A DNA stretch of 64,000 nt from an uncultured delta proteobacterium (GCA_963716785.1 CAVQUW010000025.1:70601-134600), one strand, 5' to 3'; shown: positions 22,443 through 47,671, numbered from the stretch's first letter. Made by a program: numbers and translations. The notes: generated from the sequence alone by a model not told the origin.

Positions 22443-22562
22443 TTGAACCGCAACAGCGCGCGCATACCCCGCCGCTTGCGGCGGGGTATGCGCGCGAATC
22501 CAAAAACGACCCCAATCCTTACGGTCGAAGATTTCCCGCAGCTTGCTGCGGGGAGATTCAAT
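22443..22562 (+). repeat. 120-nt dual-hairpin intergenic element, family B, intact copy
   Basis: A 19-bp perfect hairpin (CGCGCGCATACCCCGCCGC-tt-GCGGCGGGGTATGCGCGCG), a central CGACC..GGTCG stem, and a second hairpin (TCCCGCAG-cttg-CTGCGGGG). Ungapped, it is 109/120 identical to 47552-47671. Confidence 0.8.
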
Positions 22563-22871
22563 CCAAGTGCGAGGGCCTGAGCGTGTGGAGAAGAACTGCC
22601 TGGGGTGCGGTGGGATCGCGGGTGTCGGATCTCATCCGCACCGCCTGGAGGGTAATACAGTCGAAATCGGGATGTCAAGCCCGTCGGTCGACCCACGGCC
22701 TCCTCGGCGGCAGGGAGACACCGCTTGACCGCGGGCGCGTCTGAAGCTATGTCGGATCGTGAAGGCGGGGTAGAGGCCGCCGAGGATTTGATGCGGCCGC
22801 CGGTGCGGGTCCCCACCGCTCGGCCCCGGGCCGACGCCGCCGCTGAGGCGGGAGAAGGGTTGGTTTCAAGC

Positions 22872-23297
22872 ATGCTGACGATCACCGGCGGGTTGAGCAT
22901 CGCGGAGAGTGAAATCGAGGAGAGCTTCGTGCGCGGCTCCGGTCCCGGCGGGCAGAACGTGAACAAGGTGGCCACCGCGGTCCAGCTGCGCTTCGATGTG
23001 CGGCACTCCCCGTCCCTGCCTCCCGAAGTGCGCGAGCGGCTGGTGCGTCTGGCCGGCAGCCGCATGACCACGGACGGGGTCCTGATCATCGAAGCCCGCC
23101 GGTTCCGGACCCAGGAGCGCAACCGCCAGGATGCCCGCGAGCGCCTGATCGCCCTCATCCTCAAGGCCACCGAGAAACCGAAGCCCCGGCGTCCCACCCG
23201 GCTGCCGGCCGGCGTCAAGCGCCGCCGGCTGGAAGGCAAGCGCCGGCGCGGGAGCCTCAAGCGCCAGCGCCGCTCCACCCCCGACAACCAGGAGTAG
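22872..23297 (+). CDS. arfB: alternative ribosome-rescue factor ArfB (peptidyl-tRNA hydrolase, GGQ)
   Basis: 141 aa from ATG 22872 (MLTITGGLSIAESEIEESFVRGSGPGGQNVNKVATAV...) with a basic C-terminal tail. Confidence 0.85.
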   Translation: MLTITGGLSIAESEIEESFVRGSGPGGQNVNKVATAVQLRFDVRHSPSLPPEVRERLVRLAGSRMTTDGVLIIEARRFRTQERNRQDARERLIALILKATEKPKPRRPTRLPAGVKRRRLEGKRRRGSLKRQRRSTPDNQE

Positions 23298-23336
23298 CCG
23301 GGGCGGTCTCGCCATTACCCCGAGCGGAGGTCCCAG

Positions 23337-23669
23337 ATGCCCTACGACGAAGAACTCGACGCCCGGATTTCCCAGCTCGTCGCGGGCTGGGCCACGACCC
23401 GCAAGAAGATGTTCGGCGGCACCTGCCACCTGCTTCGCGGCCACATGCTCTGCGGGGTCTACCGCGACTATCTGATCCTGCGCCTTGGCGAGCGCCAGGC
23501 CGAAGAGGCACTCGCGGGGCCGGCCGTAAAGCCTTTCGACATCACCGGCCGGCCGATGAAGGGCTGGGTGATGGTGGCGGGGCCGGGTTTGAGCCGACCG
23601 GAGCTCGGCCGGTGGATCGAAAAGGCGCGTACGTTCGTGGAGACGCTGCCACCGAAAGCGGCCGTCTGA
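23337..23669 (+). CDS. TfoX N-terminal domain family protein
   Basis: 110 aa. The KKMFGGTCHLLRGHMLCGVYRDYLILRL pattern is typical of TfoX_N. Confidence 0.7.
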   Translation: MPYDEELDARISQLVAGWATTRKKMFGGTCHLLRGHMLCGVYRDYLILRLGERQAEEALAGPAVKPFDITGRPMKGWVMVAGPGLSRPELGRWIEKARTFVETLPPKAAV

Positions 23670-23750
23670 GGACCGCGCAAGGGAAAACGTTCTGGAGCGC
23701 CAAAATCCCTGGAGCCGGCGCAGCGGGTCAACCAAACCGACCGCACGCCG

Positions 23751-24611
23751 TCAGTTGAGGGTCAGGCAGACGACACCGGCGACGATGAGCCCGGCGGCTA
23801 AGGCGCGGGAGAGCCCATGACCCTCCTTGAGCAGGCCGGCGCCCAGTGCCACGGCGATCAACACGCTGACCTCCCGCAGCGGGGCGACATAGCTGACCGG
23901 TGTAAACACCATGGCCACGAGCACCAGCAGGTAGGCGAGCGGGCTGAGCAGCGCCACGGCGAAGGCCTCCCGGCGGTGCTCCCGCCACACCTGGCCGACT
24001 TCCGCCCAACGGCGCCAGGCATAAGGGCTCAGCATGACGGCGCGGGTCAGGATCGAGCCGTATTCCAGAACCAGCGGCGGGATCATCAGCACACCGACCG
24101 AGTATTTGTCCCAGACGGTGTAGCCGGCGATGAAACAGCCCGTCAGCACGCCGAACAGGAGGGATTTGCGCAGCCCCTCTTTGCTGGACGATGAGCCGCC
24201 GAGCGACAGGACGATCACCCCCGTGATCACCAGGGCGGAGCCGATCAGGGCCGGTCCGGTCGGCCGCTCCCCGAGCAGCAGGATGGCGACGATGGTGGTC
24301 AGTGTGGGGCCTGTGCCGCGCGCGAGCGGGTAGATCAGAGACAGGTCCCCCTCGCGGTAGCCGCGCAGGAGCGTCAGGAAATAGCCCACGTGAATCGCGG
24401 CGCTGCCGGCGATGAACGCAAATTCGACGATACCGACCGCCGGTCGGGCCACTACGCAGAACGCGACGGCCACCGGGGCGTACAGGACGCTGCCGAGCGT
24501 CATAACCAGCCACAGGAAGACCGGCCCGCCCCCGGCCCGCTTGGCCCAGAAGTTCCATCCGGCGTGCAGCACCGCCGCGGTGAGCACCAGAGCTGCGGCC
24601 AGGCCGGTCAT
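23751..24611 (-). CDS. DMT-superfamily (EamA-like) transporter
   Basis: 286 aa, about 10 TM segments in a duplicated EamA-like architecture. Confidence 0.8.
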   Translation of the reverse strand: MTGLAAALVLTAAVLHAGWNFWAKRAGGGPVFLWLVMTLGSVLYAPVAVAFCVVARPAVGIVEFAFIAGSAAIHVGYFLTLLRGYREGDLSLIYPLARGTGPTLTTIVAILLLGERPTGPALIGSALVITGVIVLSLGGSSSSKEGLRKSLLFGVLTGCFIAGYTVWDKYSVGVLMIPPLVLEYGSILTRAVMLSPYAWRRWAEVGQVWREHRREAFAVALLSPLAYLLVLVAMVFTPVSYVAPLREVSVLIAVALGAGLLKEGHGLSRALAAGLIVAGVVCLTLN

Positions 24612-24830
24612 GATACGGTGTCTCCTTCCCGGGTGGGGTTGGCGGGTGAGGTCCCCCCGATATCACATCAGGCCCCGGTGCGAAACAAGTTTCTACTCCG
24701 TGCCCCGCCGGTCACGGGTGGCATTGGCAAAGCGCCTCGATTTTGATAGGGGGTAATAAGGGGCCGCGCCTGCCGCGCGCCCCGGAACCGATGCATCCCG
24801 CCAGCCCATGACGCGAGGGAGGTGCGCCCC

Positions 24831-26309
24831 ATGAAAGCACTCTTGGTTTACCCGGCCTTTCCAAACACCTTTTGGAGCTTCAAATACGCGTTGAAGTTCA
24901 TCCGCAAGAAGGCCGCCTATCCCCCGCTCGGCCTGCTCACGGTCGCGGCCATGCTGCCGCCGGATTGGGACAAGCGTCTGGTGGACGTGAACGTGGAAGC
25001 CCTCACGGACGAGGACCTGGCCTGGGCCGACCTGGTCTTTATCGGCGGCATGGCCGTTCAGAGGGGCTCGGCGGCGCAGATCATCGCCCGCTGCCGGGCC
25101 CTGGGTGTGCGGATCGTCGCCGGCGGGCCGTTGTTCACCGCCGAGCCGGACGCCTTCGGGGAGGTGGACCACCTGGTGCTCGACGAGGCCGAGTCGACCC
25201 TGCCGATGTTTTTTTCGGACCTGGGCCGGGGCTGCGCCAAACGGGTCTACCGGGCCGCTGGCTTCTGCCGGCTCGAGGAGACCCCCGTTCCGGCCTGGGA
25301 CCTGGTGTCGATGAACAAATACGCCTCCATGAGCCTGCAGTTCTCCCGGGGCTGCCCGTTCAACTGCGACTTCTGCAATGTCACCGTGCTCTTCGGCCGT
25401 GGGTCGCGCATCAAGTCCGCGCAGCGCATGATCGCCGAGCTCGACAGCCTCTACGCGGCGGGCTGGCGGGGCAACATTTTTTTTGTCGACGACAATTTCA
25501 TCGGCAACAAGCGCTACCTGAAAGCCGAGCTGCTGCCGGCCCTGATCGCATGGCGCCGGGGCAAGAAGGGCTGCGTCTTCTACACCGAGGCCTCCATCAA
25601 CCTGGCCGACGACCCCGAGCTCTTGCGGCTGATGGTCGCCGCCGGTTTCGATTCGGTCTTCATCGGGATCGAATCCCCGGACGAGGCGAGCCTCGCCGAA
25701 TGCAAAAAGACCCAGAACAAGAACCGCGATCTGCTCGAAAACGTGCGGGTCATCCAGCGCGCCGGCCTCCAGGTCCAGGGCGGGTTCATCGTGGGCTTCG
25801 ACAGCGACACGGGGTCGACCTTCGAGCAGGTGATCGATTTCATCCAGCGCAGCGGGATCGTGACCGCCATGGTGGGCATCCTCCAGGCCCCCCCGGGTAC
25901 CCGCCTCTTCGAACGGCTGAGAGGCGAAAACCGGGTGATCGGGCTGATCTCCGGCGACAACGTCGATGGGACCACCAACATCATCCCCAAAATGGGGTGC
26001 CAGCGGCTGATGGAGGGCTACCAGACGGTCATGGGGACCATCTATGCGCCCAAGCACTATTACCGGCGCGTCAAGACGTTCCTCAGGGAGTTCAGCGGCC
26101 CGCAGGTCCGGTTGCCGATGAATTTCCAGCGTTTCCTCGCCTTCTTCCGCTCCTGCTTCAGGCTCGGGATCGTCGGCAAAGAACGGTTCCATTACTGGTG
26201 GCTGCTGATCTGGACCTTGACCCGCAAACCACGGCAGTTTCCGCTGGCGATCACGCTGGCCATCTACGGGCACCACTTCCGGCGGGTCTGCGAGCTGCAC
26301 CTGCGGTGA
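24831..26309 (+). CDS. B12-binding-domain radical SAM enzyme (class B, DUF4070-type C-terminus)
   Basis: ATG 24831 follows a GAGGGAGG RBS. The N-terminal cobalamin-binding fold (LLVYPAFP..PPLGLLTVAAML) is followed by the CPFNCDFC radical-SAM cluster motif. Confidence 0.85.
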   Translation: MKALLVYPAFPNTFWSFKYALKFIRKKAAYPPLGLLTVAAMLPPDWDKRLVDVNVEALTDEDLAWADLVFIGGMAVQRGSAAQIIARCRALGVRIVAGGPLFTAEPDAFGEVDHLVLDEAESTLPMFFSDLGRGCAKRVYRAAGFCRLEETPVPAWDLVSMNKYASMSLQFSRGCPFNCDFCNVTVLFGRGSRIKSAQRMIAELDSLYAAGWRGNIFFVDDNFIGNKRYLKAELLPALIAWRRGKKGCVFYTEASINLADDPELLRLMVAAGFDSVFIGIESPDEASLAECKKTQNKNRDLLENVRVIQRAGLQVQGGFIVGFDSDTGSTFEQVIDFIQRSGIVTAMVGILQAPPGTRLFERLRGENRVIGLISGDNVDGTTNIIPKMGCQRLMEGYQTVMGTIYAPKHYYRRVKTFLREFSGPQVRLPMNFQRFLAFFRSCFRLGIVGKERFHYWWLLIWTLTRKPRQFPLAITLAIYGHHFRRVCELHLR

Positions 26310-26434
26310 GTGACCGGCGGGTCCCGCCCGCCGCCCTTTAAATCCGGCCCGAGCATCCTTATATTCGCCATGCTTGGCGATTGGGGCGCCGGTTGGAGGC
26401 GATGGCCTGCCGTGAGCCTTGTTTTATTTTGCCT

Positions 26435-26495
26435 CTGAGCTAACATTCTTCAGCCTTCAACCTTTTCTTTTGCTGACAGTCATTACGAAGTCATC
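26435..26495 (+). repeat. intergenic element family A, copy b (degenerate)
   Basis: ctGAGCTAAcattCTTCAGCCTTCAACCT...cgAAGTCATCaag, ending 18 nt before the ATG at 26513. Confidence 0.5.
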
Positions 26496-26512
26496 AAGTT
26501 TGCGGGTTTCGC

Positions 26513-27640
26513 ATGCGCTTCAACAACATCTGGTGTTATCGTCCGATTCTGGCTACGAAGGGGTTTCTCCGGGCCCTCCGGCATTCCCGCCGCAACCTGG
26601 TCGCCTACGACCGCGGCAGCCCGCCCAAATTCGGCCCTTACATGGCGGAGCTGGATGTGACCTATCGGTGCAATTGCCGCTGTCACATGTGCCAGCGTTG
26701 GCGGGACACTCGCGAAGGCGAGCTGGATCTTGCGGATTATGCCCGGCTGGCGGCGGAGTTTTCAGAGATTGGCGTCCACCAGGTCAGTATCGCCGGCGGG
26801 GAGCCGCTGATGCGGTCGGATGTGTTCGATATCATCGCCCATCATGCCGGACGTGATCTTTCCGTGAATCTCTGCACCAATGGGGTGCTGGTCGAACACC
26901 ATCACCGGGACATTCTGGCGAGCGGCGCGACCTGTGTGACCGTCAGCCTGGACGGTGCCACGGAAAAAAGCCACGACTGGATCCGGGGCACCCCCGGGTC
27001 CTACGCGCAGATCAGGCGGGGGATCGCCGCGCTGCTCGAGCACCGTCGCGGCCGGCGGCCCATCGTGCGCGTGCGCATGACGGTCTCCGGGGTCAACGCG
27101 GGCGAGATCCGCTCTTTTTACGGGCAGTGGCACGGCGTGGCCGACGACGTCCTGTTTCAACCGGCCCACCACTGTGGGCACTCCTATTACACCGGTCTGG
27201 ATGCGGGGGTGCTCAACCCGGACGCCGAGCTGCTGGCGGCTCAGCTCCAGGGGACCCCGCTGGCGCGGGACACCTACATGCGCCGGTGGGTCGAGGGTCT
27301 CAGGGAGCAGCGCTTCCCTCCCCGGGCTCCCTGCTATGCCGGGTACCTGATGGCGCGCATCGACCCGTGGGGCAATGTCTACCCGTGCCTGGAGCAGCAT
27401 GTGTGCGTGGGGTCGGTGCGCTCGGAGACCTTCGCACGGGTCTGGGGCTCGGTGGATTTTGAACGGGAGCGGGAGCGGTTGGCCTCCGAGCGGCCCTGCG
27501 CCTGCTGGTACAACAACACGGCGTTGATCGGCCATTTCGGCAGCCGCTTGAAAGGCACCCTTGTCCCCGCGACCGCCGGAAAGGGGGCGGCTGCCCCGGG
27601 CGCCGCCCTGAAGCCCAACGTGACCGGCAAATCGCCCTGA
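26513..27640 (+). CDS. radical SAM enzyme with C-terminal Cys-rich (SPASM/twitch-like) region
   Basis: 375 aa. CNCRCHMC fits CxxxCxxC, and a GGEPL motif is present. C-terminal cysteines: APCYAG, YPCLEQHVCVG, RPCACWY. Confidence 0.85.
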   Translation: MRFNNIWCYRPILATKGFLRALRHSRRNLVAYDRGSPPKFGPYMAELDVTYRCNCRCHMCQRWRDTREGELDLADYARLAAEFSEIGVHQVSIAGGEPLMRSDVFDIIAHHAGRDLSVNLCTNGVLVEHHHRDILASGATCVTVSLDGATEKSHDWIRGTPGSYAQIRRGIAALLEHRRGRRPIVRVRMTVSGVNAGEIRSFYGQWHGVADDVLFQPAHHCGHSYYTGLDAGVLNPDAELLAAQLQGTPLARDTYMRRWVEGLREQRFPPRAPCYAGYLMARIDPWGNVYPCLEQHVCVGSVRSETFARVWGSVDFERERERLASERPCACWYNNTALIGHFGSRLKGTLVPATAGKGAAAPGAALKPNVTGKSP

Positions 27641-27689
27641 GAAGCGCCACGGCGCGGCGCGCTTTACCCCTCCCGTCCTGAAAGGTGTT

Positions 27690-28772
27690 GTGACGATGAG
27701 ACGCACTCTGTGCATCGATATCGGCGCCGGGACCATGGACGTGTTGTGGTTCGACACGGAGTCGGTCTTTCACTACAAGGCCGTCGTGGTCTCACCGGTG
27801 CGGACCGTCGCCGAACGGGCCGCCCGGCTCCCGGGGGACCTGGTGGTCACCGGCTGCGAGATGGGCGGCGGTCCGGTCACGACGGTGCTGCGCGAGCGGG
27901 CCGCCGCCGGTCGGGTGGTCATGTCGGTCTCGGCGGCCGCGACCCTGGCGCACGACCCGGAGAAGGTGCGCGCCTGGGGCATCCGTGTCGTGGAGGACGA
28001 GGAGGCCGAGCGGTGGCGCCTCAAAAAGACGTTTTCACACCTGCTCCTCGAGGATGTCGAAGCCGAGCGTCTCCGCCAAATCGTCGACACCTTCGGGGTG
28101 CCGTTCGAATTCGACGCCGTCGCGGTCTGCGCCCAGGACCACGGGGTGCCGCCCCAGGGGATGTCCCACCTGGATTTCCGGCACCGGCTCTACCGGGAGC
28201 GCCTGGATGCCCGGCCCCACCCCCATGTCCTGCTGTTTGCCGTCGAGGAAATCCCGCCGGTGTTGAACCGCCTGCGGTCGATGGCCGCAACGGCCGCGCG
28301 GCTGCCCGCCGAGGAAGTGTTCGTGATGGACAGCGGCATGGCCGCCATCGTGGGGGCCTCCCTGGATGCGCACGCCCCGCCGGATGCACCGTTCGTGGTC
28401 CTGGATGTCGCCACCTCCCACACGGTCTGCGCTGCGGTGGCGGGGGGCGAGCTTGCCGGCGTGGTGGAGTATCACACGGCAGACATCACCCGGGAGCGGC
28501 TGGAGGGGTTGGTCGAGGGGCTTGCGGCCGGCCGGCTGGACCACCGGCAGATCCTCGCGGAGGGCGGCCACGGCGCCTATGTCCGCAAGACCGTCGGCCC
28601 GGCCGCGCTCGAAACCATCATCGCCACCGGCCCCAAGCGCCGGATCATCCGGGGCTCCCGTTTGCCGGTTGTCTTCGGCGCCCCCATGGGGGACAACATG
28701 CTGACCGGCTGCGTCGGGCTGCTCGAGGCCCTGCGGCTGAAAAAAGGCCTGCCGCCGCTCGCGATGGCCTGA
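27690..28772 (+). CDS. ASKHA-fold protein, DUF1786-like
   Basis: 360 aa. The N-terminal LCIDIGAGTMDVL phosphate-1 motif is typical of actin-like ATPases and DUF1786 members. Confidence 0.6.
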   Translation: MTMRRTLCIDIGAGTMDVLWFDTESVFHYKAVVVSPVRTVAERAARLPGDLVVTGCEMGGGPVTTVLRERAAAGRVVMSVSAAATLAHDPEKVRAWGIRVVEDEEAERWRLKKTFSHLLLEDVEAERLRQIVDTFGVPFEFDAVAVCAQDHGVPPQGMSHLDFRHRLYRERLDARPHPHVLLFAVEEIPPVLNRLRSMAATAARLPAEEVFVMDSGMAAIVGASLDAHAPPDAPFVVLDVATSHTVCAAVAGGELAGVVEYHTADITRERLEGLVEGLAAGRLDHRQILAEGGHGAYVRKTVGPAALETIIATGPKRRIIRGSRLPVVFGAPMGDNMLTGCVGLLEALRLKKGLPPLAMA

Positions 28773-28822
28773 GTGGCGCCGCCCGGCCGCCGCCGGGGCA
28801 AGGCGGCCGCCCCGCGCGGGGC

Positions 28823-29609
28823 CTACGGTGACAGGGCGCCGTGCGGTTTAAGCTCATAGCGGAGCGGCACCCGGACCCACATCGAGATTGTCTGATCCCC
28901 CCTGCGGGCGGGTTTGAACACCCAGTCCTTGACGGAGCGCACCGCCGATTCGTCCAGAATCGTGTGCCCGCTTGAAGACACCAGCCTCACGGTATCGACC
29001 CCGCCGGTCCGGTTGACCAGGACTTCCAGGAGAACGACCCCCTCATACCCCAATTGCCGGGCCCTCCGCGGGTATTCCAAGGCGCGGTTCTTCCCGTATT
29101 CGGGTTCCGCCTCCTCCAGCACCGGCGCGGGAGGGCTTGGCCCGGACGGTGCGACCGGCGCACTCGTCGGCCCCGTGGTGGGGACCGGCGGGGTGGAAGC
29201 GCGGCGGTCGTGGTCCGGACCGGGTTCCTCCGCGGGCACGGGGGCAGCCGGTGCGGGCGGGGGCGGGTCCGCAGGCTCTGGCGCCGCCTGCCGGACAACC
29301 GGGGGAGTGGTTTTTTTCACGGCCTTGACCGGCCTTGGCGCCACGGCGGGGACAGGGGCAGGGGCGGGGGCGACCGGCGCCGCTGGGGGGTTCGACGGCG
29401 GGCGCACCGGGGCCGTAAGCGGGAGCTCCGGAGGCGGGGAGAGGCGCCGTGGCTCGAGCGGACCGCGGAGGGGGCGGGTTCAGCAGAATCGTGACCGCCT
29501 CGGGCGCCGGCGGACGCGGGGGCCGGGAGCCCCCGCGGTCGAGGTCCTGGGTGAGCAGGAAGATGTGTATCCCGACGGCGATGGCGGCGGCCGCGGCAAG
29601 GCGTTTCAC
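28823..29609 (-). pseudogene. tonB: TonB energy transducer; 1-nt frame break in the Pro-rich linker (29400-29480)
   Basis: GTG 29609 overlaps the exbD stop (GTGA). The N-terminal TM (KRLAAAAAIAVGIHIFLL) is in one frame. The Pro-rich region and C-terminal domain (YPRRARQLGYEGVVLLEVLVNRTG) are in the +1 frame. The span is 787 nt, not a multiple of 3. Confidence 0.8.
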
Positions 29610-30016: not shown

Positions 30017-30031
30017 CGACGCACCCCCGGG

Positions 30032-30641: not shown

Positions 30642-30663
30642 GGGATCTCCCTCCCGTCTGAGG

Positions 30664-35574: not shown

Positions 35575-35775
35575 CGGAGATGCAGCGATCGTTCAGGCAG
35601 GTCTTCTGACTCCCCTCCCGTTGCAGCGGCCTTCCCGCACCCGGACTTCAGTGCAGTGGCGTTTCGAGGCTGAAACGGTCCTTGCGGCACCATGCGGTGC
35701 CAAAGGAGAGGGTCACAGCGGCGGGCCCGTCCTCGATTCTCACGAGGTTCCCTTTTAAGCTCCGGGTTTGGCGGG
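35575..35775 (-). promoter_or_regulatory. cobalamin (B12) riboswitch
   Basis: The minus strand carries AAAAGGGAACCTCGTGAGAATCGAGGACGGGCCCGCCGCTGTGACC, then GCCACTGCACTG...GGGAAGGCC, then the B12 box AGTCAGAAGACCTGCC (plus-strand 35596-35611). Confidence 0.85.
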
Positions 35776-35921
35776 AATCGTCGCCAAGGCGGCGATTCCG
35801 GGCGGCGCGCGGCCGCAAACCCGTTGGAGCGCCTGAACCTAATTCGGTCCAATAGACCGGGTGGGGATGAAAATCAAGCAAAAAAATCCAGGTGCCCGAG
35901 CGACCGGGTGCGGTGACACGC

Positions 35922-38912: not shown

Positions 38913-38920
38913 GTTTTCTC

Positions 38921-39056
38921 CTTTCTTGGTAGTTTTAGGTTTTAAGTTTTAAGTGTTAAGTGAAAGAAAAAGATGACTTTCCCCTCAGGCTCTCCCCAAA
39001 CCATTGCGAAAATCAAAAACTTGTTTTCTTAACACGTAACACTTAAAACTTGACAC
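38921..39056. repeat. inverted arrays of GTKTTAA heptamers flanking a 73-nt core containing the AAGTCATC box (minus strand)
   Basis: Left arm: GTTTTAG GTTTTAA GTTTTAA GTGTTAA GTGAAAG. Right arm: TTAACAC GTAACAC TTAAAAC TTGACAC, which is the reverse complement of GTGTCAA GTTTTAA GTGTTAC GTGTTAA. GATGACTT lies in the core. Confidence 0.7.
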
Positions 39057-39062
39057 TATCCA

Positions 39063-39773: not shown

Positions 39774-40530
39774 GCGTGCGCCCCTTCCGGCCCAGGTAAG
39801 CTTCGATCACGGCCTCCTCGCGTCGGATCGCGGCCGGCTCGCCTTCGGCCAGCTTGCTCCCGTGGTCCAGCACGACCAACCGGTCGCAAAGCCCCATGGC
39901 CACCCGCATGTTGTGCTCGATCAGGAGCACGGTCAGTCCGTCGGCGCGGATGGCGCGAATGAGGGTCTCGAGCTGGGTGATCTCCTCGTGCCTCAAACCC
40001 GAGAACGATTCGTCGAGCAGCAGCAGCTTGCGGCCGACGGCAAGCGCCCGGGCGATTTCCAGGCGCCGCAGGTTTCCGAGAGGCAGCAGCCCGGACTTGC
40101 GATCGGCGAGCTCGGCGAGACCCACGCGTTCGAGCAGGGCCAGGGCGGCCTTTTGCTCCGCCCGCGTAGTCCAGCCGGACCACACCCGTCTCAGGCTCCC
40201 GTAGCGATGGATGCCCCGGGCCGCCAGGACGTTTTCAAGCACCGTCAGGTGCGCGAAGGGTTTCACGATCTGAAAGGTGCGGCCCACGCCGAGCCCCGCG
40301 ATGCGGTGCGAGGGGAGCCCGTCGGTGCGCCTCCCATCGAACAGGATCCGGCCGGCGGTGGGCTTGTACACCCCGCTGATCAGGTTGAAGCAGACGGTCT
40401 TGCCGGCGCCGTTGGGGCCGATCAGCCCGAGGATCTCCCCCGGCCGGATGGCGAAGCTGACCCCGTCGACGGCCTTGAGACCGTCGAAGTGCTTCGAGAG
40501 GTCGCAGATTTCAAGCAGCGGCGTGGTCAC
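39763..40530 (-). CDS. livG: branched-chain amino acid ABC transporter ATP-binding protein LivG
   Basis: GTG 40530 overlaps the livM stop (GTGA). GPNGAGKT and LLLDE motifs are present. Confidence 0.9.
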   Translation of the reverse strand: MTTPLLEICDLSKHFDGLKAVDGVSFAIRPGEILGLIGPNGAGKTVCFNLISGVYKPTAGRILFDGRRTDGLPSHRIAGLGVGRTFQIVKPFAHLTVLENVLAARGIHRYGSLRRVWSGWTTRAEQKAALALLERVGLAELADRKSGLLPLGNLRRLEIARALAVGRKLLLLDESFSGLRHEEITQLETLIRAIRADGLTVLLIEHNMRVAMGLCDRLVVLDHGSKLAEGEPAAIRREEAVIEAYLGRKGRTHAA

Positions 40531-41411
40531 TTGGTCCTCCGGGGCATCAGCTTGGCCAGGATCGAGCGGGCGGCGCTCCCCTCCCCCAGGAGGCCTCCGG
40601 GTTGAAAACGGATCATGAGCAGCAGAAGCGCGGTGTAGAACAGGATGCGGTAGTCGACCAGCGGCCGGAACAGCTCGGGCAGGATCCCGATGATGAGCGC
40701 GCCGAGAACCGGCCCCCAAAGGGTCCCGATGCCACCGACGACGACCATGCTCAAGAGCGACACCGACATGGGGAAGGCGAAGTCGGTGGCTGAGATGAAG
40801 CGCATGAAATGGGCGTAGAGCGCACCCCCCAGCCCGGCCATGCCGGTGCCGATCACGAAGGCGAGCAGCTTGAAGCGCACCGCCGAAATCCCCACGCTGG
40901 CGGCGGCCTCCTCCTCCTCCCGCAAGGCGAAGCAGGCCAGGCCCGCCCAGCAGCGGGTGAGCCACCAGCAGGCGAGCATCACGAGGGCCAGGAAGCCCAG
41001 GCACAGGCCGAAGAACTCGGGCCCGCGGAACCGGAACTCGAGCAGGGTGATGCGCGGGATCCCCCCGATCCCGAGCGCCCCGCCGAAGAAGGGCACATAG
41101 AGGAAGACCGCCTCCACGATGAAGTTGATGCCGATGGTGGTGATGGCGAGGAAATCCTCGCGCACCCTCAGGCTGGGGATGCCGAGCAGCAGACCGACGC
41201 TGGCGCTGATGGCGATGACGCAGGGCAGGGCCGTCCAGAAGGAGAGCCCCGCCTGGGTGGCCAGCAGGGCGGCGCTGTAGGCCCCGATCCCGAAGAACGC
41301 CGCGTGGCCAAGGGAGATCTGCCCCGCGAAGCCCACGATCACATTCAGGCCGCAGGCTACGATGGCGTTGATGGCGATGATGGTTCCGATCGTGATCAGG
41401 TATCCGCTCAC
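40527..41411 (-). CDS. livM: branched-chain amino acid ABC permease LivM
   Basis: 294 aa, multi-TM, GQISLGHAAFFGIGAY motif. Confidence 0.9.
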   Translation of the reverse strand: MSGYLITIGTIIAINAIVACGLNVIVGFAGQISLGHAAFFGIGAYSAALLATQAGLSFWTALPCVIAISASVGLLLGIPSLRVREDFLAITTIGINFIVEAVFLYVPFFGGALGIGGIPRITLLEFRFRGPEFFGLCLGFLALVMLACWWLTRCWAGLACFALREEEEAAASVGISAVRFKLLAFVIGTGMAGLGGALYAHFMRFISATDFAFPMSVSLLSMVVVGGIGTLWGPVLGALIIGILPELFRPLVDYRILFYTALLLLMIRFQPGGLLGEGSAARSILAKLMPRRTK

Positions 41412-41421
41412 GCCATCTCCT

Positions 41422-42285
41422 TTAACGCGAACCCATCAACCCCTGGGGCCGCCACATCAGCACCACGATCATGGCGATGAAGGCCAGGGCGTCGCGGGGC
41501 AGGGGGATGTCCGCAAAGCCGATGAGCAGGGTTTCGGCCATGCCGAGCAGCATGGCGGCGATCACCGCTCCGGGCACCGACCCCAGCCCGCCGACGACGA
41601 TCAGGGCGAGCGTCTTGTAGGCGGGGATCGCCCCCATGGTGGGGTAGACCTGGTTGTAGTAGATCCCCACCAGGATCCCGGCCACGGCGGCGACGGCGGA
41701 GCCGATCGCAAAGGTGATGCTGACGATGAAGTGGCTGTCGATCCCCATGGTGTCGGCGATGGTCATATCCTGGGAGGCGGCCCGCATGGCCAGCCCAAGC
41801 TCGGTGCGGGTGGTGACGAACCACAGAAGCGCCAGCACCGCGGCCGTGATGCCGTAGACGGCCGTCAGCGTGGGGGTCACGGTGAGGCCCCCGAGGTGCA
41901 GCTCCGGAAACGGCAGCTCAGCCGGAAAGGTCAGGATCTGGGGGCCGGCGATCAGCCGGCAGAGCTCCTCGACCGAAAGGAACACGGCGATGCTGCCGAT
42001 CAGGGGCACGAAGGGCGGGTACTTCAGCAGCGGGAAATAGACGAAGCGCTCGATGGCGACCCCGATCAGGGCGCAGGCGAGCATGCTGCCGACGACCGCG
42101 ACGAGCAGGCTGCCGCTCAGGTTGAACCAGAACACCCCCAGGTAGGCGCCGATGGTGTAAACGGCGGCATGGGCCACGTGCAGGATGCGCAGGATCCCGT
42201 AGACCAGGGCGAGCCCCAGGGTGATCAGGGCGTAGATGGAGCCTGTGGCGAGCCCGTTCAGCAACTGTTCAAGGAAGAGCTGCAT
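41422..42285 (-). CDS. livH: branched-chain amino acid ABC permease LivH
   Basis: 287 aa. MQLFLEQLLNGLATGSIYALITLGLALVYG is a typical LivH N-terminus. Confidence 0.9.
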   Translation of the reverse strand: MQLFLEQLLNGLATGSIYALITLGLALVYGILRILHVAHAAVYTIGAYLGVFWFNLSGSLLVAVVGSMLACALIGVAIERFVYFPLLKYPPFVPLIGSIAVFLSVEELCRLIAGPQILTFPAELPFPELHLGGLTVTPTLTAVYGITAAVLALLWFVTTRTELGLAMRAASQDMTIADTMGIDSHFIVSITFAIGSAVAAVAGILVGIYYNQVYPTMGAIPAYKTLALIVVGGLGSVPGAVIAAMLLGMAETLLIGFADIPLPRDALAFIAMIVVLMWRPQGLMGSR

Positions 42286-42335
42286 TTATTTTCGTCGGAA
42301 CTCCACCAGGGTCAGTATCCTTATTTTCAGACCCC

Positions 42336-42420
42336 GCCGCCCGCGCTGCCGCCGCCGGGAACGGGGTCGGCGGAGGCGGTTTTAGCGAGATAGTCTGTAG
42401 GGCTCGACTTTTCAGTACAT
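42336..42420 (-). pseudogene. degenerate 5' fragment of a cyclodeaminase-family gene (paralogous to 48032..48649)
   Basis: About 80 nt align to 48573-48650 at roughly 70 percent identity (..TDYLAKTASADPVPGGGSA..). The fragment carries an indel and an early stop. Confidence 0.6.
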
Positions 42421-42435
42421 TTACGCTTCTCAGTT

Positions 42436-42674
42436 AAGTTTGTCAAAGACGAGATGTCGATGGGTTTGATACCGGATTTCGCGGACGAGGTCTTCGATCT
42501 GGTGAAAGAACCGAACCGCGACGGGATGACGGTGCACCTGGTCGAGCGGAATGCAAAGAAGGTCCAGGCCGTGGCCGACCGGACCTATGTCCTCAAGACC
42601 GGCCGCATCGTGCTCCACGACAGCGCCGAGAACCTGGCAAGAACCCCGAGATCCAGAAGGCCTACCTCGGCGGA
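42436..42674 (+). pseudogene. 3' fragment of a LivF-type ABC ATPase gene
   Basis: It reads DEMSMGLIPDFADEVFDLVKEPNRDGMTVHLVERNAKKVQAVADRTYVLKTGRIVLHDSAENLA then, after a frameshift, NPEIQKAYLGG. Walker A and the rest of the N-terminal half are missing. Confidence 0.7.
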
Positions 42675-42693
42675 TGCCCCAAAGTTTTTGTTC

Positions 42694-43102
42694 CTACAAT
42701 GCTGTCCAAATCTGGATATAAAGAGCGTTTTCAGTGGTACCCAGAGAAAGTTTTGACTTTCAGGTTCTGTTTGAGAGCTTTAAAAAACAACTCGATCTGC
42801 CAGCGGTCTTTGTAGATGGCGCCGATGGTGCTGGCGGCAAATTCAAAGTGGTTGGTCAGCAGGGTGATCGACTTGCCGCTCACAGGGTCGATGGCCACGA
42901 TGCGCCGCAGAGGAAACGGGCATTTTTGTTGGGCTTTTTCGGCGGCTAACACGATGGTCCCATCGCTGTCCGACGAATACCAGCAAACCGCAACAAATCT
43001 GCAATTCCCCGAATCGATACCTTTGATCAGGTAATCTCCACCCCGTTTTGTCACAGGCAAGGATTCGACATAGGCACGAATGTCAACCCGGAAGAGAGCC
43101 AA
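42694..43102 (-). mobile_element. IS4-family DDE transposase remnant (internal fragment, frameshifted, both ends missing)
   Basis: ..AIYKDRWQIELFFKALKQNLKVKTF then, in a shifted frame, GTSENALYIQIWTAL*. There is no N-terminal half and I found no inverted repeats. Confidence 0.75.
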
Positions 43103-43166
43103 CCCAAGTTTTCCATCTACTATTGTCAGAACCCCTTATGCGTCCAATCGTCCGTATCGATTTATG

Positions 43167-43196
43167 TTGACATGTCAAAATCAACCATAGTATGAA
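43167..43196 (+). promoter_or_regulatory. candidate sigma70 promoter (TTGACA-18 nt-TATGAA); the -35 lies in the 12-nt palindrome TTGACATGTCAA
   Basis: Read directly from the sequence. It lies immediately upstream of the riboswitch. Confidence 0.5.
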
Positions 43197-43205
43197 AAAA
43201 GGACG

Positions 43206-43320
43206 ATAAAGGGGAGTAGCAATTGGCGGTCATTTCCGCCACCCCGCGTTTCGTCAATACGGAAGGGTCACCTCCCGGACGCGGGTAGCGATTTCACTTC
43301 GCGATTTGCAAGACCTTTAT
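43206..43320 (+). promoter_or_regulatory. yybP-ykoY (Mn2+) riboswitch
   Basis: The 5' conserved AAAGGGGAGTAGC and the 3' conserved TTTGCAAGACCTTTAT match the yybP-ykoY signature (compare the L. lactis yoaB leader). The length of about 115 nt fits. Confidence 0.8.
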
Positions 43321-43360
43321 TCGCAGATTCACTGCGCTGCGGATAAAGGTCTTTTTTTTT
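43310..43360 (+). terminator. riboswitch-coupled intrinsic terminator
   Basis: AAGACCTTTAT...ATAAAGGTCTT followed by T9. The 5' arm overlaps the 3' strand of aptamer P1. Confidence 0.8.
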
Positions 43361-43516
43361 GGCATTCTTTCCGCGGCGGCAAATAAGGCAAGAGATTTCT
43401 TCGAAGCCGATACATAGATCCGCCAAACCAGCACTATCGGCCGGACCAGGATCGACAATTTTCTCCCAATAACGCGGGCTGGTTCGCACATCTTTACAGA
43501 AACGGAGTGTAATCAC

Positions 43517-46246
43517 ATGGCACAAAACCAGTGGCATGCAATGTCGGCTGAAGAAGTCCTGAAGCGATTGGACGTCCCTGCTGAAGGTCTTAGCCACGCA
43601 GAGGCTGCCCGGCGTCTTGAGAAGTACGGACCCAATACCCTCAAGGAAAAAAAGAAAATCAGCCCCTGGCAGATTTACTTTGGTCAGTTTAAAAACTTTC
43701 TCATTATGCTGCTGCTGGCCGCAACGGCTATTTCCCTCGTGGTGGGAGAGACCCTGGACGCGGCTATCATATTCGCCATAGTTGTCGCCAGCACCCTGCT
43801 CGGATTCTATCAAGAATTCCGAGCGGAAAAGGCGATGGAGGCCCTGAAGGCCATGTCATCTCCTTCGGCGACGGTCATCCGTGAAGGAGAGGAAGTCGAG
43901 ATCGCCTCCGCCGATGTAGTGCCCGGTGATATAATGGTGTTGACTGCAGGAGACCGGATGCCAGCCGACGGGCGGCTTATAGAAGCGGTCAATACCCGCA
44001 TTGACGAAGCCTCGCTGACCGGGGAATCCTCTGCCGTCAGCAAGGATGCCCAAGCGATCCTGACGGGGGACACCTCCATAGGCGACCGCAAGAACGTTGT
44101 GTTCGCGGCGACGATAATGACATACGGGCGCGCTCGGGGCGTGGTGACCGGCACCGGAATGGAGACGGAGTTCGGCCGAATTGCTAAAATGCTTCAAGAA
44201 GTCGAAGAAGAGCCGTCCCCCCTGGCGGTGAAGATGGATTACATCGGCAGACGGCTCGGTATCGCGTGCCTGCTCGTATCCGCCATCGTCCTGGGGCTCG
44301 GAATCTTTCGCGGAAATCCCATCCTCGAAATGTTCATATGGGCAATCAGCCTGGCCATCGCAGCCGTCCCCGAAGCCCTGGCGGCCGTTGTGACCGGTGC
44401 GCTTGCCATCGGCGTACAGCGAGCAGCCAAACGGAAAGCCATTGTCCGCCGCTTGGCGGCGGTCGAAACTCTTGGGTGCACGACCGTTATCTGCACCGAC
44501 AAAACGGGCACCTTGACCAAGAACGAAATGACCATTCGTCAGATTTTCGTGGGAGGCCGGACTATAGAGATCGGCGGGGTGGGTTTCGAGCCCACCGGCA
44601 CGTTCAGCAACGATTCCACACCGCTGGACCCGCAGAGCGACCCGACCCTGAAATTGATGCTCATGGGAGGGCTGCTTTGCAGCGACGCCCATCTGCTGCA
44701 GGAAAATGGGACCTGGCGCGTTAAAGGCGACCCCACTGAAGGGGCCCTGGTAGTGGCCGCGGCTAAAGCGAATCTCAAAGCCGGGGAAATTAAGAAAACC
44801 TGGCCCCGCATAGGGGAAATTCCTTTTGAATCCGAGCGAAAGCGGATGAGCACTGTGCACCAGCCGCCACAGGGAGACCCTATCGCCTTCGTCAAGGGCG
44901 CGCCCGAGTCGATTATCGAGCGCTGCACCCATTGGGAAAGCAACGGGCGGCGTCAACCCCTGACGGAAGAAATTCGCCGCCGGATCCTCGACACCAACGA
45001 CCACATGGCGAAGTCCGCCTTGCGCGTTCTCGGGCTGGCCTGCCGGCCTGTCTCGAACAACGCGCCCAGCCACACACCTGAGACCCTGGAGGCGGACCTC
45101 ACCTTCCTGGGACTGGTAGGCATGATTGACCCGCCTCGCGAAGAGGTGAAAAAAGCCATCCGTGACTGCAAAGCAGCCGGAATCCGCACCGTCATGGTCA
45201 CAGGCGACCACAAGCTCACGGCTGCCGCCATCGCTCGCGAGTTGGGTATCCTCGGCGGAGGAGGAGCATCGCATGAGTTCAAGACGATCGAAGGTCGTGA
45301 ACTCGACAATATGAGCGAGAAAGAACTGGCGGCCATAGTGAAGGACGTGGCGGTCTATGCCCGCGTCTCGCCCGAGCACAAGTTGAAAATCGTCGGTGCA
45401 TGGAAAAGCTGGGACCACGTCGTCGCCATGACCGGCGACGGCGTTAACGACGCGCCGGCCCTCAAACGCGCCGACATCGGGATTGCTATGGGGATCACGG
45501 GGACAGACGTCACCAAGGAAGCCTCCGACATGGTCCTCATGGATGACAACTTCGCCACGATCGTGGCGGCAGTGGAAGAAGGACGAATCATCTACGACAA
45601 CATCAAAAAGTATCTTACCTTCCTCCTGTCGTGCAATGTTGCCGAGATTCTGGTTCTCGGAATAGCAGGCATGATCGGCTGGCCTCTGCCCCTGATCGCC
45701 TTGCAAATCCTGTGGGTCAATCTTGTCACCGACGGCCCACCGGCCTTGGCTCTGAGCGTGGAACCTGCCGAACCGGATCTCATGAGGCGGCCGCCGCGCG
45801 ATCCCAACGAGCCGGTGTTCTCGAGATCCGTTCTTGCCACTTTGTCTTCGATGAGCCTCCTGATTTTTGCCGGCCTGATGCCGATTTTCTACTTTTACTG
45901 GCAGGCGGAAGGCGTGGAGAAAGCCCAAACCATCACCCTCGCCACGTTGGTTGTTTACCAGCTGTTCTATGCTCTCAGCTGTCGATCGCTCCGCTTTACT
46001 TTGCCGCAGCTTGGGTTTTTCACCAATAAGTGGCTGTTGGCCGCGGTGTCGGCCTCAGGGCTCTTGACGCTGGCGGTGATATACATCCCGTCCTGGAGCA
46101 AGGCATTTGGAACGGTGCCGCTTACCTTTTGGGACTGGAACGTTTGTTTAATCGCCGCTGGTGGTAGTTTCCTGCTGGTTGAACTCGGAAAATGGATCAG
46201 CGGCCGAAAAAAAAGAACACAGGCCGCGCCGGTTCATGCGGATTGA
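43517..46246 (+). CDS. P-type ATPase, P2A (SERCA/PMR1-like Ca2+/Mn2+) cation transporter
   Basis: 909 aa with DKTGTLT, TGDHKLTA and MTGDGVNDAPALKRADIGIAMG. GC content is lower than the flanks. Confidence 0.9.
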   Translation: MAQNQWHAMSAEEVLKRLDVPAEGLSHAEAARRLEKYGPNTLKEKKKISPWQIYFGQFKNFLIMLLLAATAISLVVGETLDAAIIFAIVVASTLLGFYQEFRAEKAMEALKAMSSPSATVIREGEEVEIASADVVPGDIMVLTAGDRMPADGRLIEAVNTRIDEASLTGESSAVSKDAQAILTGDTSIGDRKNVVFAATIMTYGRARGVVTGTGMETEFGRIAKMLQEVEEEPSPLAVKMDYIGRRLGIACLLVSAIVLGLGIFRGNPILEMFIWAISLAIAAVPEALAAVVTGALAIGVQRAAKRKAIVRRLAAVETLGCTTVICTDKTGTLTKNEMTIRQIFVGGRTIEIGGVGFEPTGTFSNDSTPLDPQSDPTLKLMLMGGLLCSDAHLLQENGTWRVKGDPTEGALVVAAAKANLKAGEIKKTWPRIGEIPFESERKRMSTVHQPPQGDPIAFVKGAPESIIERCTHWESNGRRQPLTEEIRRRILDTNDHMAKSALRVLGLACRPVSNNAPSHTPETLEADLTFLGLVGMIDPPREEVKKAIRDCKAAGIRTVMVTGDHKLTAAAIARELGILGGGGASHEFKTIEGRELDNMSEKELAAIVKDVAVYARVSPEHKLKIVGAWKSWDHVVAMTGDGVNDAPALKRADIGIAMGITGTDVTKEASDMVLMDDNFATIVAAVEEGRIIYDNIKKYLTFLLSCNVAEILVLGIAGMIGWPLPLIALQILWVNLVTDGPPALALSVEPAEPDLMRRPPRDPNEPVFSRSVLATLSSMSLLIFAGLMPIFYFYWQAEGVEKAQTITLATLVVYQLFYALSCRSLRFTLPQLGFFTNKWLLAAVSASGLLTLAVIYIPSWSKAFGTVPLTFWDWNVCLIAAGGSFLLVELGKWISGRKKRTQAAPVHAD

Positions 46247-46320
46247 GTCGATAGTCGGTAAAGTCTGCAAGCGGCCATAGAGCGACCCAAGGAACGAACC
46301 ACTGAGCCTGAAATAAACTT

Positions 46321-46608
46321 TCAGAATCGGACTTCTCCATTTCTGGTGACTAACTCACTCTTCGGAAGTTCGGGCTCAGTGGCTCGGTGTTGCCTGAGTT
46401 TAAAGTTATAAGGATGAAAACGTGGGAGATACCCCTCTAAACTTCTAAGCAGGTCGATTCCAAAAAAGCAGATGGTTGGTGCTCGAAACACTGGTGGCTT
46501 TAATCGTTGTCGCTGTTGATTTGTTTTTTTGCAAACAAAAACCTGAATAAGGCCATGTCTTGCGAGCAAATACTTTTTGCTTAAGATCATGGATTCACCC
46601 ATCCGCAA
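46321..46608 (-). CDS. hypothetical protein (possibly a gene remnant)
   Basis: 95-aa ORF in the low-GC mosaic. No recognised motif and no convincing RBS. Confidence 0.2.
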   Translation of the reverse strand: MRMGESMILSKKYLLARHGLIQVFVCKKTNQQRQRLKPPVFRAPTICFFGIDLLRSLEGYLPRFHPYNFKLRQHRATEPELPKSELVTRNGEVRF

Positions 46609-46764
46609 TAAGCAATGAGGTTTTTTCGGCTTACGACTTTAGGATAGGGTGACATTTAACACTCTCAGAGATTTTTAGCTCCTGTCAACTGGAATAATAG
46701 ATGTGGCAATCCAGTTCGTTTGCGCGTCATTTCGTATTTCCCCCAACGGTAATGGGGTCTAATT

Positions 46765-47262
46765 ATGCAATTTCCTTATTGTGATGCGCTGAAAAAAAAA
46801 GCAATCCATTGGTCTGTGCTCGTAGCGATTGCACTGGCCGTTTTCGTTTGCGCTGGGTGCTCATACAAAATCGCCCTAATTCCACGTGACGGAGGACAAT
46901 CGTCCACATCAACCTTAAGAATAGAATCTATCGGGGAAGCTTTTAGTGGGCCGATTGAACTCATTGTGGATGGATTGAAATACAGAGGGACATATGTCGC
47001 CTCACTGAACGACTACGGCTTTACGCTTCTCAAAAAATACTGCCCCCGGGATGCGGATGTGTCGCGAGAACACTCAGACTGGTATGGCCAAGCCACCTTG
47101 AAAGAACCCTGGGGCCGAATACTTCAGTGTGAATACCAAGGCAGTTCATCAAAAGGGGGGTATGGGGTGTGCGTAAGCAGTGAAGGGGAGGTTTATGACA
47201 TGATTATTTCGAAATGGATCTTCTCCGAGTTGGTTGAGTCGAAAGGGGGAAATGTGATGTGA
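46765..47262 (+). CDS. hypothetical lipoprotein
   Basis: 165 aa. Signal peptide with lipobox (AVFVCAGCS). Low-GC codon usage is consistent with its island context. Confidence 0.55.
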   Translation: MQFPYCDALKKKAIHWSVLVAIALAVFVCAGCSYKIALIPRDGGQSSTSTLRIESIGEAFSGPIELIVDGLKYRGTYVASLNDYGFTLLKKYCPRDADVSREHSDWYGQATLKEPWGRILQCEYQGSSSKGGYGVCVSSEGEVYDMIISKWIFSELVESKGGNVM

Positions 47263-47344
47263 TATCAAGAAGAATGGACATCCGGAATCTCCGAGGATAT
47301 AGGTTGATTTGCGAGAAAAACCATATCCGAGAAGGAGGCCAGCG

Positions 47345-47476
47345 ATGTCCAGTGTTTCTATATCACGCTATTTCCCCTTTCGTCGAATCACAATTACCAA
47401 ACAGGTGGTCAATGATACCGCCTCAGAAGCCCTGATTGAAGCTGTTCCCGACCGACGCTTTCACCTTATTCATTGA
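47345..47476 (+). CDS. hypothetical 43-aa protein (MSSVSISRYFPFRRITITKQVVNDTASEALIEAVPDRRFHLIH)
   Basis: The ATG is preceded by a strong GAAGGAGG RBS at optimal spacing. The ORF is below the cutoff of the supplied ORF track. Confidence 0.3.
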   Translation: MSSVSISRYFPFRRITITKQVVNDTASEALIEAVPDRRFHLIH

Positions 47477-47551
47477 CCATAAAGGTTTCGATCCACTTCA
47501 AGGCCCATAATTAGGTGGCCTTACACAAAAAATGCAGTGGGGTAGAAAGAT

Positions 47552-47671
47552 TTGAACCGCAAAAGCGAGCGCATTCCCCGCCGCTTGCGACGGTGTTAGC
47601 GAGCGAATCCAAAAACGACCCCATTCCTTACGGTCGAAGATTCCCCGCAGCTTGCTGTGGGGAGATTCAAT
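47552..47671 (+). repeat. 120-nt dual-hairpin element, family B, partly decayed copy
   Basis: 109/120 identical to 22443-22562 with no gaps. 9 of the 11 differences fall in the first 51 nt, and 7 of them disrupt pairs of the first hairpin. The 3' 69 nt differ at only 2 positions. Confidence 0.8.

Follow-up and report, generated by a model that had tools for sequence, protein, structure and literature searches.

Two 114-nt repeats of an uncultured delta proteobacterium are probably non-autonomous IS200/IS605-type elements with TGAA as target

The DNA analyzed here is a stretch of 64,000 nucleotides, hereafter the window, from the genome of an uncultured delta proteobacterium (GCA_963716785.1, CAVQUW010000025.1:70601-134600). 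It harbors two copies of a 120-nt repeat in the same orientation, copy 1 at 22443-22562 and copy 2 at 47552-47671, which had been noticed in an initial annotation made from the sequence alone; both a pairwise alignment and a repeat search of the window returned the gapless alignment claimed there, with 109/120 identical positions (91%). A 37-nt core of the repeat is found at these two sites only, 0 occurrences being expected in 100 shuffles, and an nhmmer search retrieved both stretches, with E = 4e-44 and 5e-43. Copy 1 lies, as had been annotated, in the region between a divergent TPR lipoprotein gene (21705-22388/22394, minus strand, with a start at either 22388 or 22394) and arfB (plus strand, RF-1 domain, likely start at about 22872); the perfect 19-bp hairpin described for it is present (arms 22457-22475 and 22478-22496), and its plus strand folds with z = -7.5 relative to shuffles. 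Copy 2, annotated as sitting at the right edge of a low-GC mosaic, is located inside a low-GC block (about 42.4-48.0 kb), roughly 350-450 nt before the rise in GC near 48.0-48.1 kb. The initial annotation had considered a small RNA (sRNA), a recombination site, or an element resembling either repetitive extragenic palindromic (REP) sequences or miniature inverted-repeat transposable elements (MITEs).

The two copies belong to a dispersed family. An exact 22-mer from the central region of the repeat had no match in genome contigs or metagenome contigs, because this region is specific to the lineage of this genome. In a BLASTN search of plasmids, three records of Ca. Manganitrophus (Nitrospirota) were each found to contain one copy, 76% identical and bounded in the same way, which is flanked by convergent GDT1-family and TPR genes. 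The columns invariant between the Manganitrophus and the window copies were taken as a 22-nt search pattern (TCGAAGATTYCCCGCNGCTTGC), which matches at least 120 metagenome contigs, and an nhmmer profile built from those contigs gave 175 matches, spread over 124 sources and including 99 of full length. After merging of split matches, up to about four separate copies are found per contig, and identical copies with unrelated flanks exist inside one metagenome. The carriers include many uncultured sediment and groundwater bacteria; the GC content of the host contigs ranges from 39 to 68%, that of the element staying at about 55-60%. No element match was found in phage records or IMG/VR viral contigs, and a literal sequence search of papers found no published description of this sequence family, which seems to be undescribed so far. 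The best orthologues of the window TPR protein are 58-59% identical and derive mostly from Desulfobacterales or Deltaproteobacteria metagenome-assembled genomes, none of them a close representative of the window organism; the TPR-arfB loci of GTDB representatives (L001-L019, protein identity of at most 59%) contain no element and, being too distant, cannot be used as empty sites. A weak nhmmer match to the left part of the element was also recorded in the window at 12593-12647 (plus strand, E = 0.02). It contains the hairpin TCCCCGTCGCTTCCCGCGGGGAC, which closely precedes a ribosome-binding site and an ATG (12668), and could be a decayed solo hairpin module or a chance match.

The boundaries of the element were defined by the conservation profile and by empty sites. 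Among 91 distinct copies, TGAA precedes the left end in 86, with a further T before it in 55 (60%), and TCAA ends 90, the longer TTCAA being likewise present in 90 (99%). The terminal TCAA is followed most often by T (71 copies), then by A (16) and C (4), and never by G. The flanks carry no information content and no visible duplication, and long inverted repeats at the termini are lacking. A search for uninterrupted matches to the joined flanks of each copy then yielded two filled/empty pairs. In the first (locus L136), one of two paralogous PDDEXK_3 (GxxExxY-type) genes (4051-4422 and 1055-1462) is interrupted: the filled gene reads ATACTTGAA, then the element (CCGCAAAAG...GAGCTTCAA), then CTAAAGTC, whereas in the empty paralogue ATACTTGAA runs directly into CTGAAGTC; the 114-nt insertion is in frame (38 codons, no stop) and the reading frame stays open. 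In the second, GTGTGAA is followed by the element (CCGC...CTTCAA) and then by TCTGTGGCTGAATAG in L080, and directly by TCTGTGGCTGAATAG in L027. This latter pair was available because another dispersed repeat, of the GTTCATCTGTGTGAATCTGTGGCTGAATAG type, had served as the insertion target; that repeat was observed at L080 3740-3830 and 3952-3970 and at L027 826-948, as well as in L037, L049 and L108. In both pairs the insertion point is directly 3' of TGAA, and the insertion is precise, without target duplication. Therefore, the mobile segment extends from the base after TGAA through the terminal TCAA, that is, 114 nt at 22448-22561 in copy 1 and at 47557-47670 in copy 2, each flanked on the left by TTGAA (22443-22447 and 47552-47556, respectively) outside the segment.

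The same ends might be read as those of a classical MITE that owes its mobility to a DDE transposase and has either 5-bp terminal inverted repeats (TTGAA/TTCAA, which are mutually reverse complementary) or a 2-bp AA target duplication, given the 2-nt AA ambiguity of the empty-site alignments. This origin is very improbable, since the conservation of the two ends is asymmetric (the first left T in 60% of the copies, the right TTCAA in 99%), their similarity stops after 5 nt, short of inverted repeats of at least 10 bp, and the profile displays no flanking duplication; moreover, neither the complementarity described below nor the co-orientation of neighboring copies would be expected from such an element.

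It is known that in IS608 the left cleavage site, TTAC, which is also the target, is external to the element and precedes the foot of the left hairpin by 19 nt, while the right one, TCAA, is internal and follows the foot of the right hairpin by 10 nt; the four bases directly 5' of each foot act as guides (GL AAAG, GR GAAT), guide base 1 pairing with site base 2 (A+16:T-3) and guide base 2 with site base 1 (A+17:T-4) (PMC3201880; PMC5934647). The extension of this register to all four positions is the authors' own reading of these two papers. In the present family, the four bases 5' of the left inner stem are CATT in about 68/88 copies, and those 5' of the right hairpin are GATT in 83/87 copies with a locatable right guide, a proportion partly due to the construction of the search pattern. 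When the IS608 register is applied, CATT and TGAA form four Watson-Crick pairs out of four on the left (C:G, A:T, T:A, T:A), and so do GATT and TCAA on the right (G:C, A:T, T:A, T:A); the sole difference between the two cleavage motifs (G on the left, C on the right) is mirrored by that between the guides (C on the left, G on the right). In the largest subfamily the left guide occupies +16 to +19 and the hairpin begins at +20, exactly as in IS608, and in another subfamily the guide is one base nearer. Judging from these sequences, the ends obey the IS608 guide/cleavage rule, with TGAA as a new target. Left and right motifs that are nearly alike have also been described in Geobacillus IS605 elements, whose right motif is TTCAC (PMC10055086).

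All these parts can be located on the plus strand of the two window copies. In copy 1, the TGAA of the left flanking motif would be the left cleavage site, analogous to a transposon-adjacent motif (TAM), and is followed by the left-end hairpin (22457-22496), which embeds in its stem a left guide changed to CATA (22463-22466; CATT in the family); on the right, the guide GATT (22530-22533) directly precedes the hairpin TCCCGCAG-CTTG-CTGCGGGG (22534-22553), whose pairs covary in the family, and TCAA (22558-22561), the putative right cleavage motif, analogous to a transposon-encoded motif (TEM), constitutes the last four bases of the element. Copy 2 is closer to the family consensus, with the left guide CATT at 47572-47575, a left hairpin composed of an outer helix (47564-47570/47599-47605) and an inner stem with two mismatches (47576-47595), the right guide GATT at 47639-47642, the right hairpin at 47643-47662 and TCAA at 47667-47670. 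As far as a sequence can tell, this anatomy agrees on every point with that of an IS200/IS605-type non-autonomous element, and both repeats are most probably elements of this kind, i.e., palindrome-associated transposable elements (PATEs), a reading to which a probability of about 0.75 is assigned. They would thus represent an ordinary kind of selfish DNA, a gene-less element of the single-strand "peel-and-paste" (IS200/IS605) type. The REP/MITE-like option of the initial annotation was the nearest of the three, in that the repeat is a dispersed, non-coding and mobile hairpin sequence; its anatomy is, however, that of IS200/IS605 rather than that of a REP or of a DDE-mobilized MITE.

The likeness to IS608 of Helicobacter pylori, the paradigm of IS200/IS605 single-strand transposition, concerns the subterminal hairpins at both ends and on one strand, the left cleavage site outside the element that is also the target, TCAA as the last four bases, the guides directly 5' of each hairpin (the right pair being GATT/TCAA here and GAAT/TCAA in IS608), the position of the left guide, and the lack of terminal inverted repeats and of target duplication. 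Unlike IS608, the element is 114 nt long and devoid of tnpA and tnpB, its target is TGAA instead of TTAC, the right cleavage motif lies 8-9 nt from the hairpin foot instead of 10 nt, and two additional covarying helices, an outer left one and one referred to as P1, are present. PATEs, such as those of Geobacillus stearothermophilus, are gene-less, multi-copy IS200/IS605 derivatives presumed to be mobilized in trans by TnpA (PMC10055086). Like them, the present element is non-autonomous, multi-copy and made up of a left and a right end; its sequence is unrelated to theirs as far as compared (literal sequence search in papers, no Rfam family), its hosts are uncultured lineages of 39-68% GC, and no omega-RNA is in evidence here. 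PATEs reportedly occur in Haloquadratum walsbyi as well. Lastly, the target of ISDra2 of Deinococcus radiodurans, TTGAT (TTGAT/G, PMC5934647), is one base off TTGAA, and in both the base that follows the cleavage site is subject to a preference (T or A in the present element); ISDra2 is autonomous, carrying both tnpA and tnpB.

The two subterminal hairpins (CCCCGCnG-CTTG-CnGCGGGG) are alike and in direct orientation on the same strand. This similarity had been attributed to an internal duplication, but it is better explained by the same transposase binding both ends. RNAalifold on MAFFT alignments recovered almost no structure, since subfamilies differ in length by 1 nt and their 5' ends were misaligned as a result; hence, a covariance model with a hand-defined structure (R1) was used, onto which 85 strong matches (81 distinct) were realigned, and which retrieves copy 1 with 133.4 bits (E = 7e-28, 22444-22561) and copy 2 with 129 bits (E = 8e-27). 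Standard pairs account for 89.2% of the cells versus 80.5% in shuffles (0/500 shuffles reaching the observed value), pairs changed on both sides number 16 versus 8.6, and the covariation score is 0.230 versus 0.070 in shuffles and at most 0.044 in slid controls. Model positions 82-103 are invariant in part because the search pattern required them. Support from covariation extends to both inner hairpins, the outer helix of the left hairpin and P1. The outer left helix (6-7 bp) is mostly GCGAGC/GCGAGC with tandem G.A mismatches, and has Watson-Crick pairs instead in three cases, the Manganitrophus type, L081 and the GGCC type. In P1, the bases right after TGA pair with the 4-6 bases directly 5' of CGAAGATT, in many variants (ACCG/CGGT, ACTG/CAGT, ATCTG/CAGAT, ATCTTT/AAAGAT, ATCC/GGAT, AAATG/CATTT, AAACC/GGTTT and ATGTG/CGCAT); three of its four pairs covary over the 81 distinct copies, e.g., CG:40/UA:32/AU:4 and GC:34/UA:21/CG:18. 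In the window, P1 is formed by ACCG (22447-22450) and CGGT (22522-22525) in copy 1, and by 47556-47559 and 47631-47634 in copy 2. A further GAAG/CTTC helix around the right hairpin is invariant, and its conservation is better explained by the fact that the same bases serve as guide and cleavage site. As for the central CGACC/GGTCG stem of the initial annotation, it does exist in the two copies of this genome, to which it is private, rather than being conserved in the family.

P1 may bring the left junction beside the right end in a very short element. It is conceivable, though doubtful, that P1 and the outer left helix together make a self-synapsing single-stranded DNA fold or else a minimal omega-RNA-like scaffold for a TnpB/IscB encoded in trans. 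In the former case, a 114-nt element would present both cleavage sites to one transposase dimer; in the latter, transcription of the scaffold would continue into the right flank, and each copy would act as a guide-RNA gene whose TAM is TTGAA.

An RNA might even be the primary product of the family, either as a multi-copy sRNA or as such a scaffold reading into the right flank, and some observations point in this direction. The covarying P1 and outer left helix exceed the known needs of TnpA, and in some copies the plus strand folds better than the minus strand. A CUUG loop closed by G-C, as on the plus strand here, belongs to a class of stable RNA tetraloops; on the other hand, 114 nt are few for the known omega-RNA scaffolds. 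PATEs have often been reported to encode omega-RNAs (PMC10055086). Against these stand the Rfam 15 search, in which copy 1, copy 2 and a consensus-like copy had no match and gave nothing meaningful even at E up to 10; the flanks, where no promoter-like or terminator-like conserved site was found around copy 1 and a single terminator-like site near copy 2 is outside the element; and the ORFs (open reading frames) upstream of nine 5'-truncated copies, which look like ordinary genes with no TnpB features recognizable by eye. The orientation of the copies relative to the neighboring genes is near random, the upstream gene being on the same strand in 64 cases and on the opposite one in 47. The initial annotation had noted that both changes in the right hairpin keep pairing if the plus strand is read as RNA; G.U pairs as a mark of an RNA strand do not hold in general, since the right hairpins of the whole family contain as many G.T as A.C mismatches (20 of each), and wobble pairs are therefore uninformative about an RNA strand. 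A primarily RNA-based role is thus quite unlikely, and the sRNA proposal finds no support. Other classes were tried and rejected: a CRISPR mini-array (instead of a variable spacer, the hairpins enclose a sequence that subfamilies conserve and that covaries with the 5' end), an attC site (the ends are not mutually complementary), a hammerhead (no ribozyme core, no Rfam match) and a terminator (no T-run).

The comparison with the family also allows the history of the two window copies to be traced. They share 11 positions differing from the subfamily consensus, including the central CGACCCC and a C-to-A change in GAGATTCAA, and must therefore be sister copies of an origin internal to this lineage. 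Of the four substitutions private to copy 2, two (G38A and G42T, in model numbering) put mismatches in the left inner stem; this copy shares CATTCCCC...GTTAG with the Manganitrophus copies. Of the seven private to copy 1, five (A16C, A50C, T23A, T45A, A46T) perfect the hairpin, in that its tandem G.A pairs and its ATT/TTA internal loop acquire Watson-Crick pairing; by the same changes the guide becomes CATA and is buried. On the sequence evidence, then, the perfect palindrome of copy 1 is the derived state and copy 2 is close to the family consensus, which largely reverses the initial view that seven substitutions had destroyed the left hairpin of copy 2: five are copy 1 changes that perfect it and only two are weakening changes of copy 2. 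Likewise, the 3' 69 nt of the two copies differ at three positions rather than two, the third being A/T at 22515/47624. Copy 1 is probably no longer mobilizable, because its palindrome buries the left guide. Closure of the internal loop has recurred independently in the family, as TAA/TTA in L039, L105 and L073, as ATT/AAT in L090 and L140, and as ATA/TAT in copy 1, and each conversion removes the left guide sequence; this recurrence suggests, in the authors' view, quasi-palindrome correction.

Other copies have undergone larger rearrangements. Head-to-tail dimers, in which TTCAA is joined directly to TCTGAC..., are found in L094/L106, L124, L132 and L035; internal deletions have removed the left hairpin in L054, L060, L119 and L122; some copies bear extra hairpins of 20-50 nt at the tip of the left hairpin; and several 5'-truncated copies keep a TGAA a short distance upstream (L086, L107, L126). 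Single-hairpin forms of about 51 nt (L092 861-911 and 2140-2190; L101 1769-1839) consist of a left leader with CATT, one hairpin and the tail AGCTTCAA, which includes TCAA; they are apparently deletions between the two near-identical hairpins and resemble REP units. Both forms of L092 are directly downstream of same-strand ORFs, inside a duplicated segment. A different kind of break was observed in a 1513-nt Logan contig (ERR12037370), the sole other one encoding an identical TPR protein, which stops 101 nt upstream of the start codon; its end would correspond to about position 22489 of the window, inside the copy 1 hairpin, and is consistent with a break of a short-read assembly at the repeat.

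The copies are mostly intergenic, and a strand bias exists. Where copies neighbor each other on one contig, 18 pairs are co-oriented versus 5 that are not (p = 0.011). Of the outcome that the initial annotation had associated with a plain REP (dozens of copies in random orientation), one half was thus found: copies are numerous, but neighbors mostly share one orientation. In addition, the GC skew of the contig is positive in the orientation of the element in 53/82 contigs (p = 0.011), and the plus strand of the window is G-rich throughout, with a skew of the same sign. Members of the IS200/IS605 family are reported to have their active (top) strand on the lagging-strand template (PMC5027513). 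The direction of the bias is as expected for a top strand so placed, the effect being modest and the local GC skew an indirect proxy.

Concerning the enzyme, the sole Y1 transposase encoded in about 840 kb is that of L030 (8606-9109, Pfam Y1_Tnp, E = 5e-40), 540 nt from a copy. This IS200-like tnpA was rejected as a partner because its own end hairpins are unrelated, and its proximity is regarded as a coincidence; it is flanked on both sides (8380-9260) by a different GC-rich repeat, CCCTCACCC(C/T)G(G/A)CCCTCTCCCGAAACGGGAGAGGGAGCGAGGCAG, an unrelated REP-like family of the same organism. No protein family beyond generic signaling domains recurs beside the copies.

The lack of a linked transposase is also what would be predicted if the repeat were kept by a domesticated REP-associated tyrosine transposase (RAYT), a host-resident, single-copy enzyme with the same Y1/HUH chemistry as an IS200/IS605 TnpA. 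REPs and the bacterial interspersed mosaic elements (BIMEs) that they compose are, like the present family, short GC-rich intergenic hairpin repeats served by a Y1 enzyme in trans, and the strand bias and the single-hairpin forms of L092 and L101 would fit a REP as well. REPs are typically palindromes of 20-40 nt with a 5' GT[AG]G, arranged in inverted pairs, and the RAYT gene is flanked by them. In the present element, by contrast, the two hairpins are direct, whereas those of BIMEs and of REPINs (REP doublets forming hairpins) are inverted; the left and the right end differ, each with a cleavage motif of its own at IS608-like spacing, and REPs are not known to have such distinct motifs obeying the IS608 rule; and the GTAG-type tetranucleotide is absent. 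The search for a RAYT/TnpA(REP) gene proposed in the initial annotation disclosed no RAYT-like ORF in about 840 kb, a weak test, made with a reconstructed YafM seed. A RAYT-maintained REP is therefore unlikely, and a PATE mobilized by an IS200/IS605 TnpA is preferred.

Several points nevertheless weigh against the PATE reading. Neither the 64-kb window nor the related loci examined (about 775 kb, about 140 copies) yielded a Y1 transposase whose ends match. The 2-nt AA ambiguity of the boundaries would formally allow a 2-bp duplication, and the right foot-to-cleavage distance departs from that of IS608. The invariance of GATT and of the right hairpin was partly imposed by a search pattern covering those bases. 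The strand bias is only moderately significant and is based on local GC skew. Finally, P1 and the outer left helix, both covarying, are outside the IS608 paradigm and may point to an additional function.

If the two repeats are indeed PATEs, the following scenario can be proposed by analogy with IS608. The mobile unit of 114 nt is nothing but a left end joined to a right one, both of which bear a subterminal hairpin on the same strand. A Y1 (HUH) transposase whose gene lies at another site of the genome would bind both hairpins in single-stranded DNA and locate the flanking TGAA and the terminal TCAA through their pairing with CATT and GATT, the tetranucleotides directly 5' of the hairpins; the plus strand would then be excised as a circle and re-inserted 3' of a TGAA exposed in single-stranded DNA at a replication fork, without target duplication. 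Copy 2 would have landed in, or arrived with, the low-GC island, and copy 1 would have inserted between the divergent TPR gene and arfB, where its left hairpin later became a perfect palindrome.

The position of copy 2 within that island deserves separate consideration, since two direct repeats 25 kb apart, one of them near a low-GC island, might be attL/attR-type sites or the edges of a segmental duplication. The low-GC block (42327-48649, 47-60% GC versus about 65% around it) possesses, however, a boundary repeat of its own, a 68-nt direct repeat 81% identical (42338-42405/48568-48635), the right copy of which forms the N-terminus of a complete FTCD_C gene (48032-48649, minus strand) and the left copy of which belongs to a truncated, 39-aa copy of the same N-terminus (42327-42446, minus strand). 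The block, which contains a DDE_Tnp_1 transposase fragment (42731-43102, minus strand) and a P-type cation ATPase gene (43517-46246, plus strand), appears to be an insertion that either caused a duplication of the 5' end of FTCD_C or recombined there. Furthermore, the interior between 22.5 and 42 kb has the GC content of the surrounding genome (about 61-72% in 1-kb windows), no tRNA gene is present in the window, and the family is dispersed over unrelated contexts in at least 120 contigs, so that a role of the two copies as island boundaries is scarcely credible and the recombination-site proposal was abandoned. Elsewhere in the window, a cobalamin riboswitch is present at 35579-35791 (minus strand, 69.3 bits versus a gathering score of 31.5), the sole Rfam family reaching threshold in the window, and an AT-rich inverted repeat (GTTTTAAGTTTTAAGTGTTAAGTG...) with 42-nt arms, 74% complementary and 34 nt apart, is located at 38939-39056 in an otherwise GC-rich region.

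For the annotation of this genome, the PATE reading implies that both repeats are selfish-DNA insertions, and neither regulatory RNAs nor island boundaries, and that they date the arrival of copy 2 relative to the low-GC island only loosely. Such repeats break short-read assemblies, and the family displays a recurrent "perfecting" of a quasi-palindrome. At the level of the family, a compact and widespread element (host GC 39-68%, at least two phyla) with TGAA as a new target would offer a clean natural test of the IS608 code, and it may serve as a marker for the cognate Y1 transposase, and for any TnpB with the TAM TTGAA, in uncultured Desulfobacterota-like and Nitrospirota genomes.

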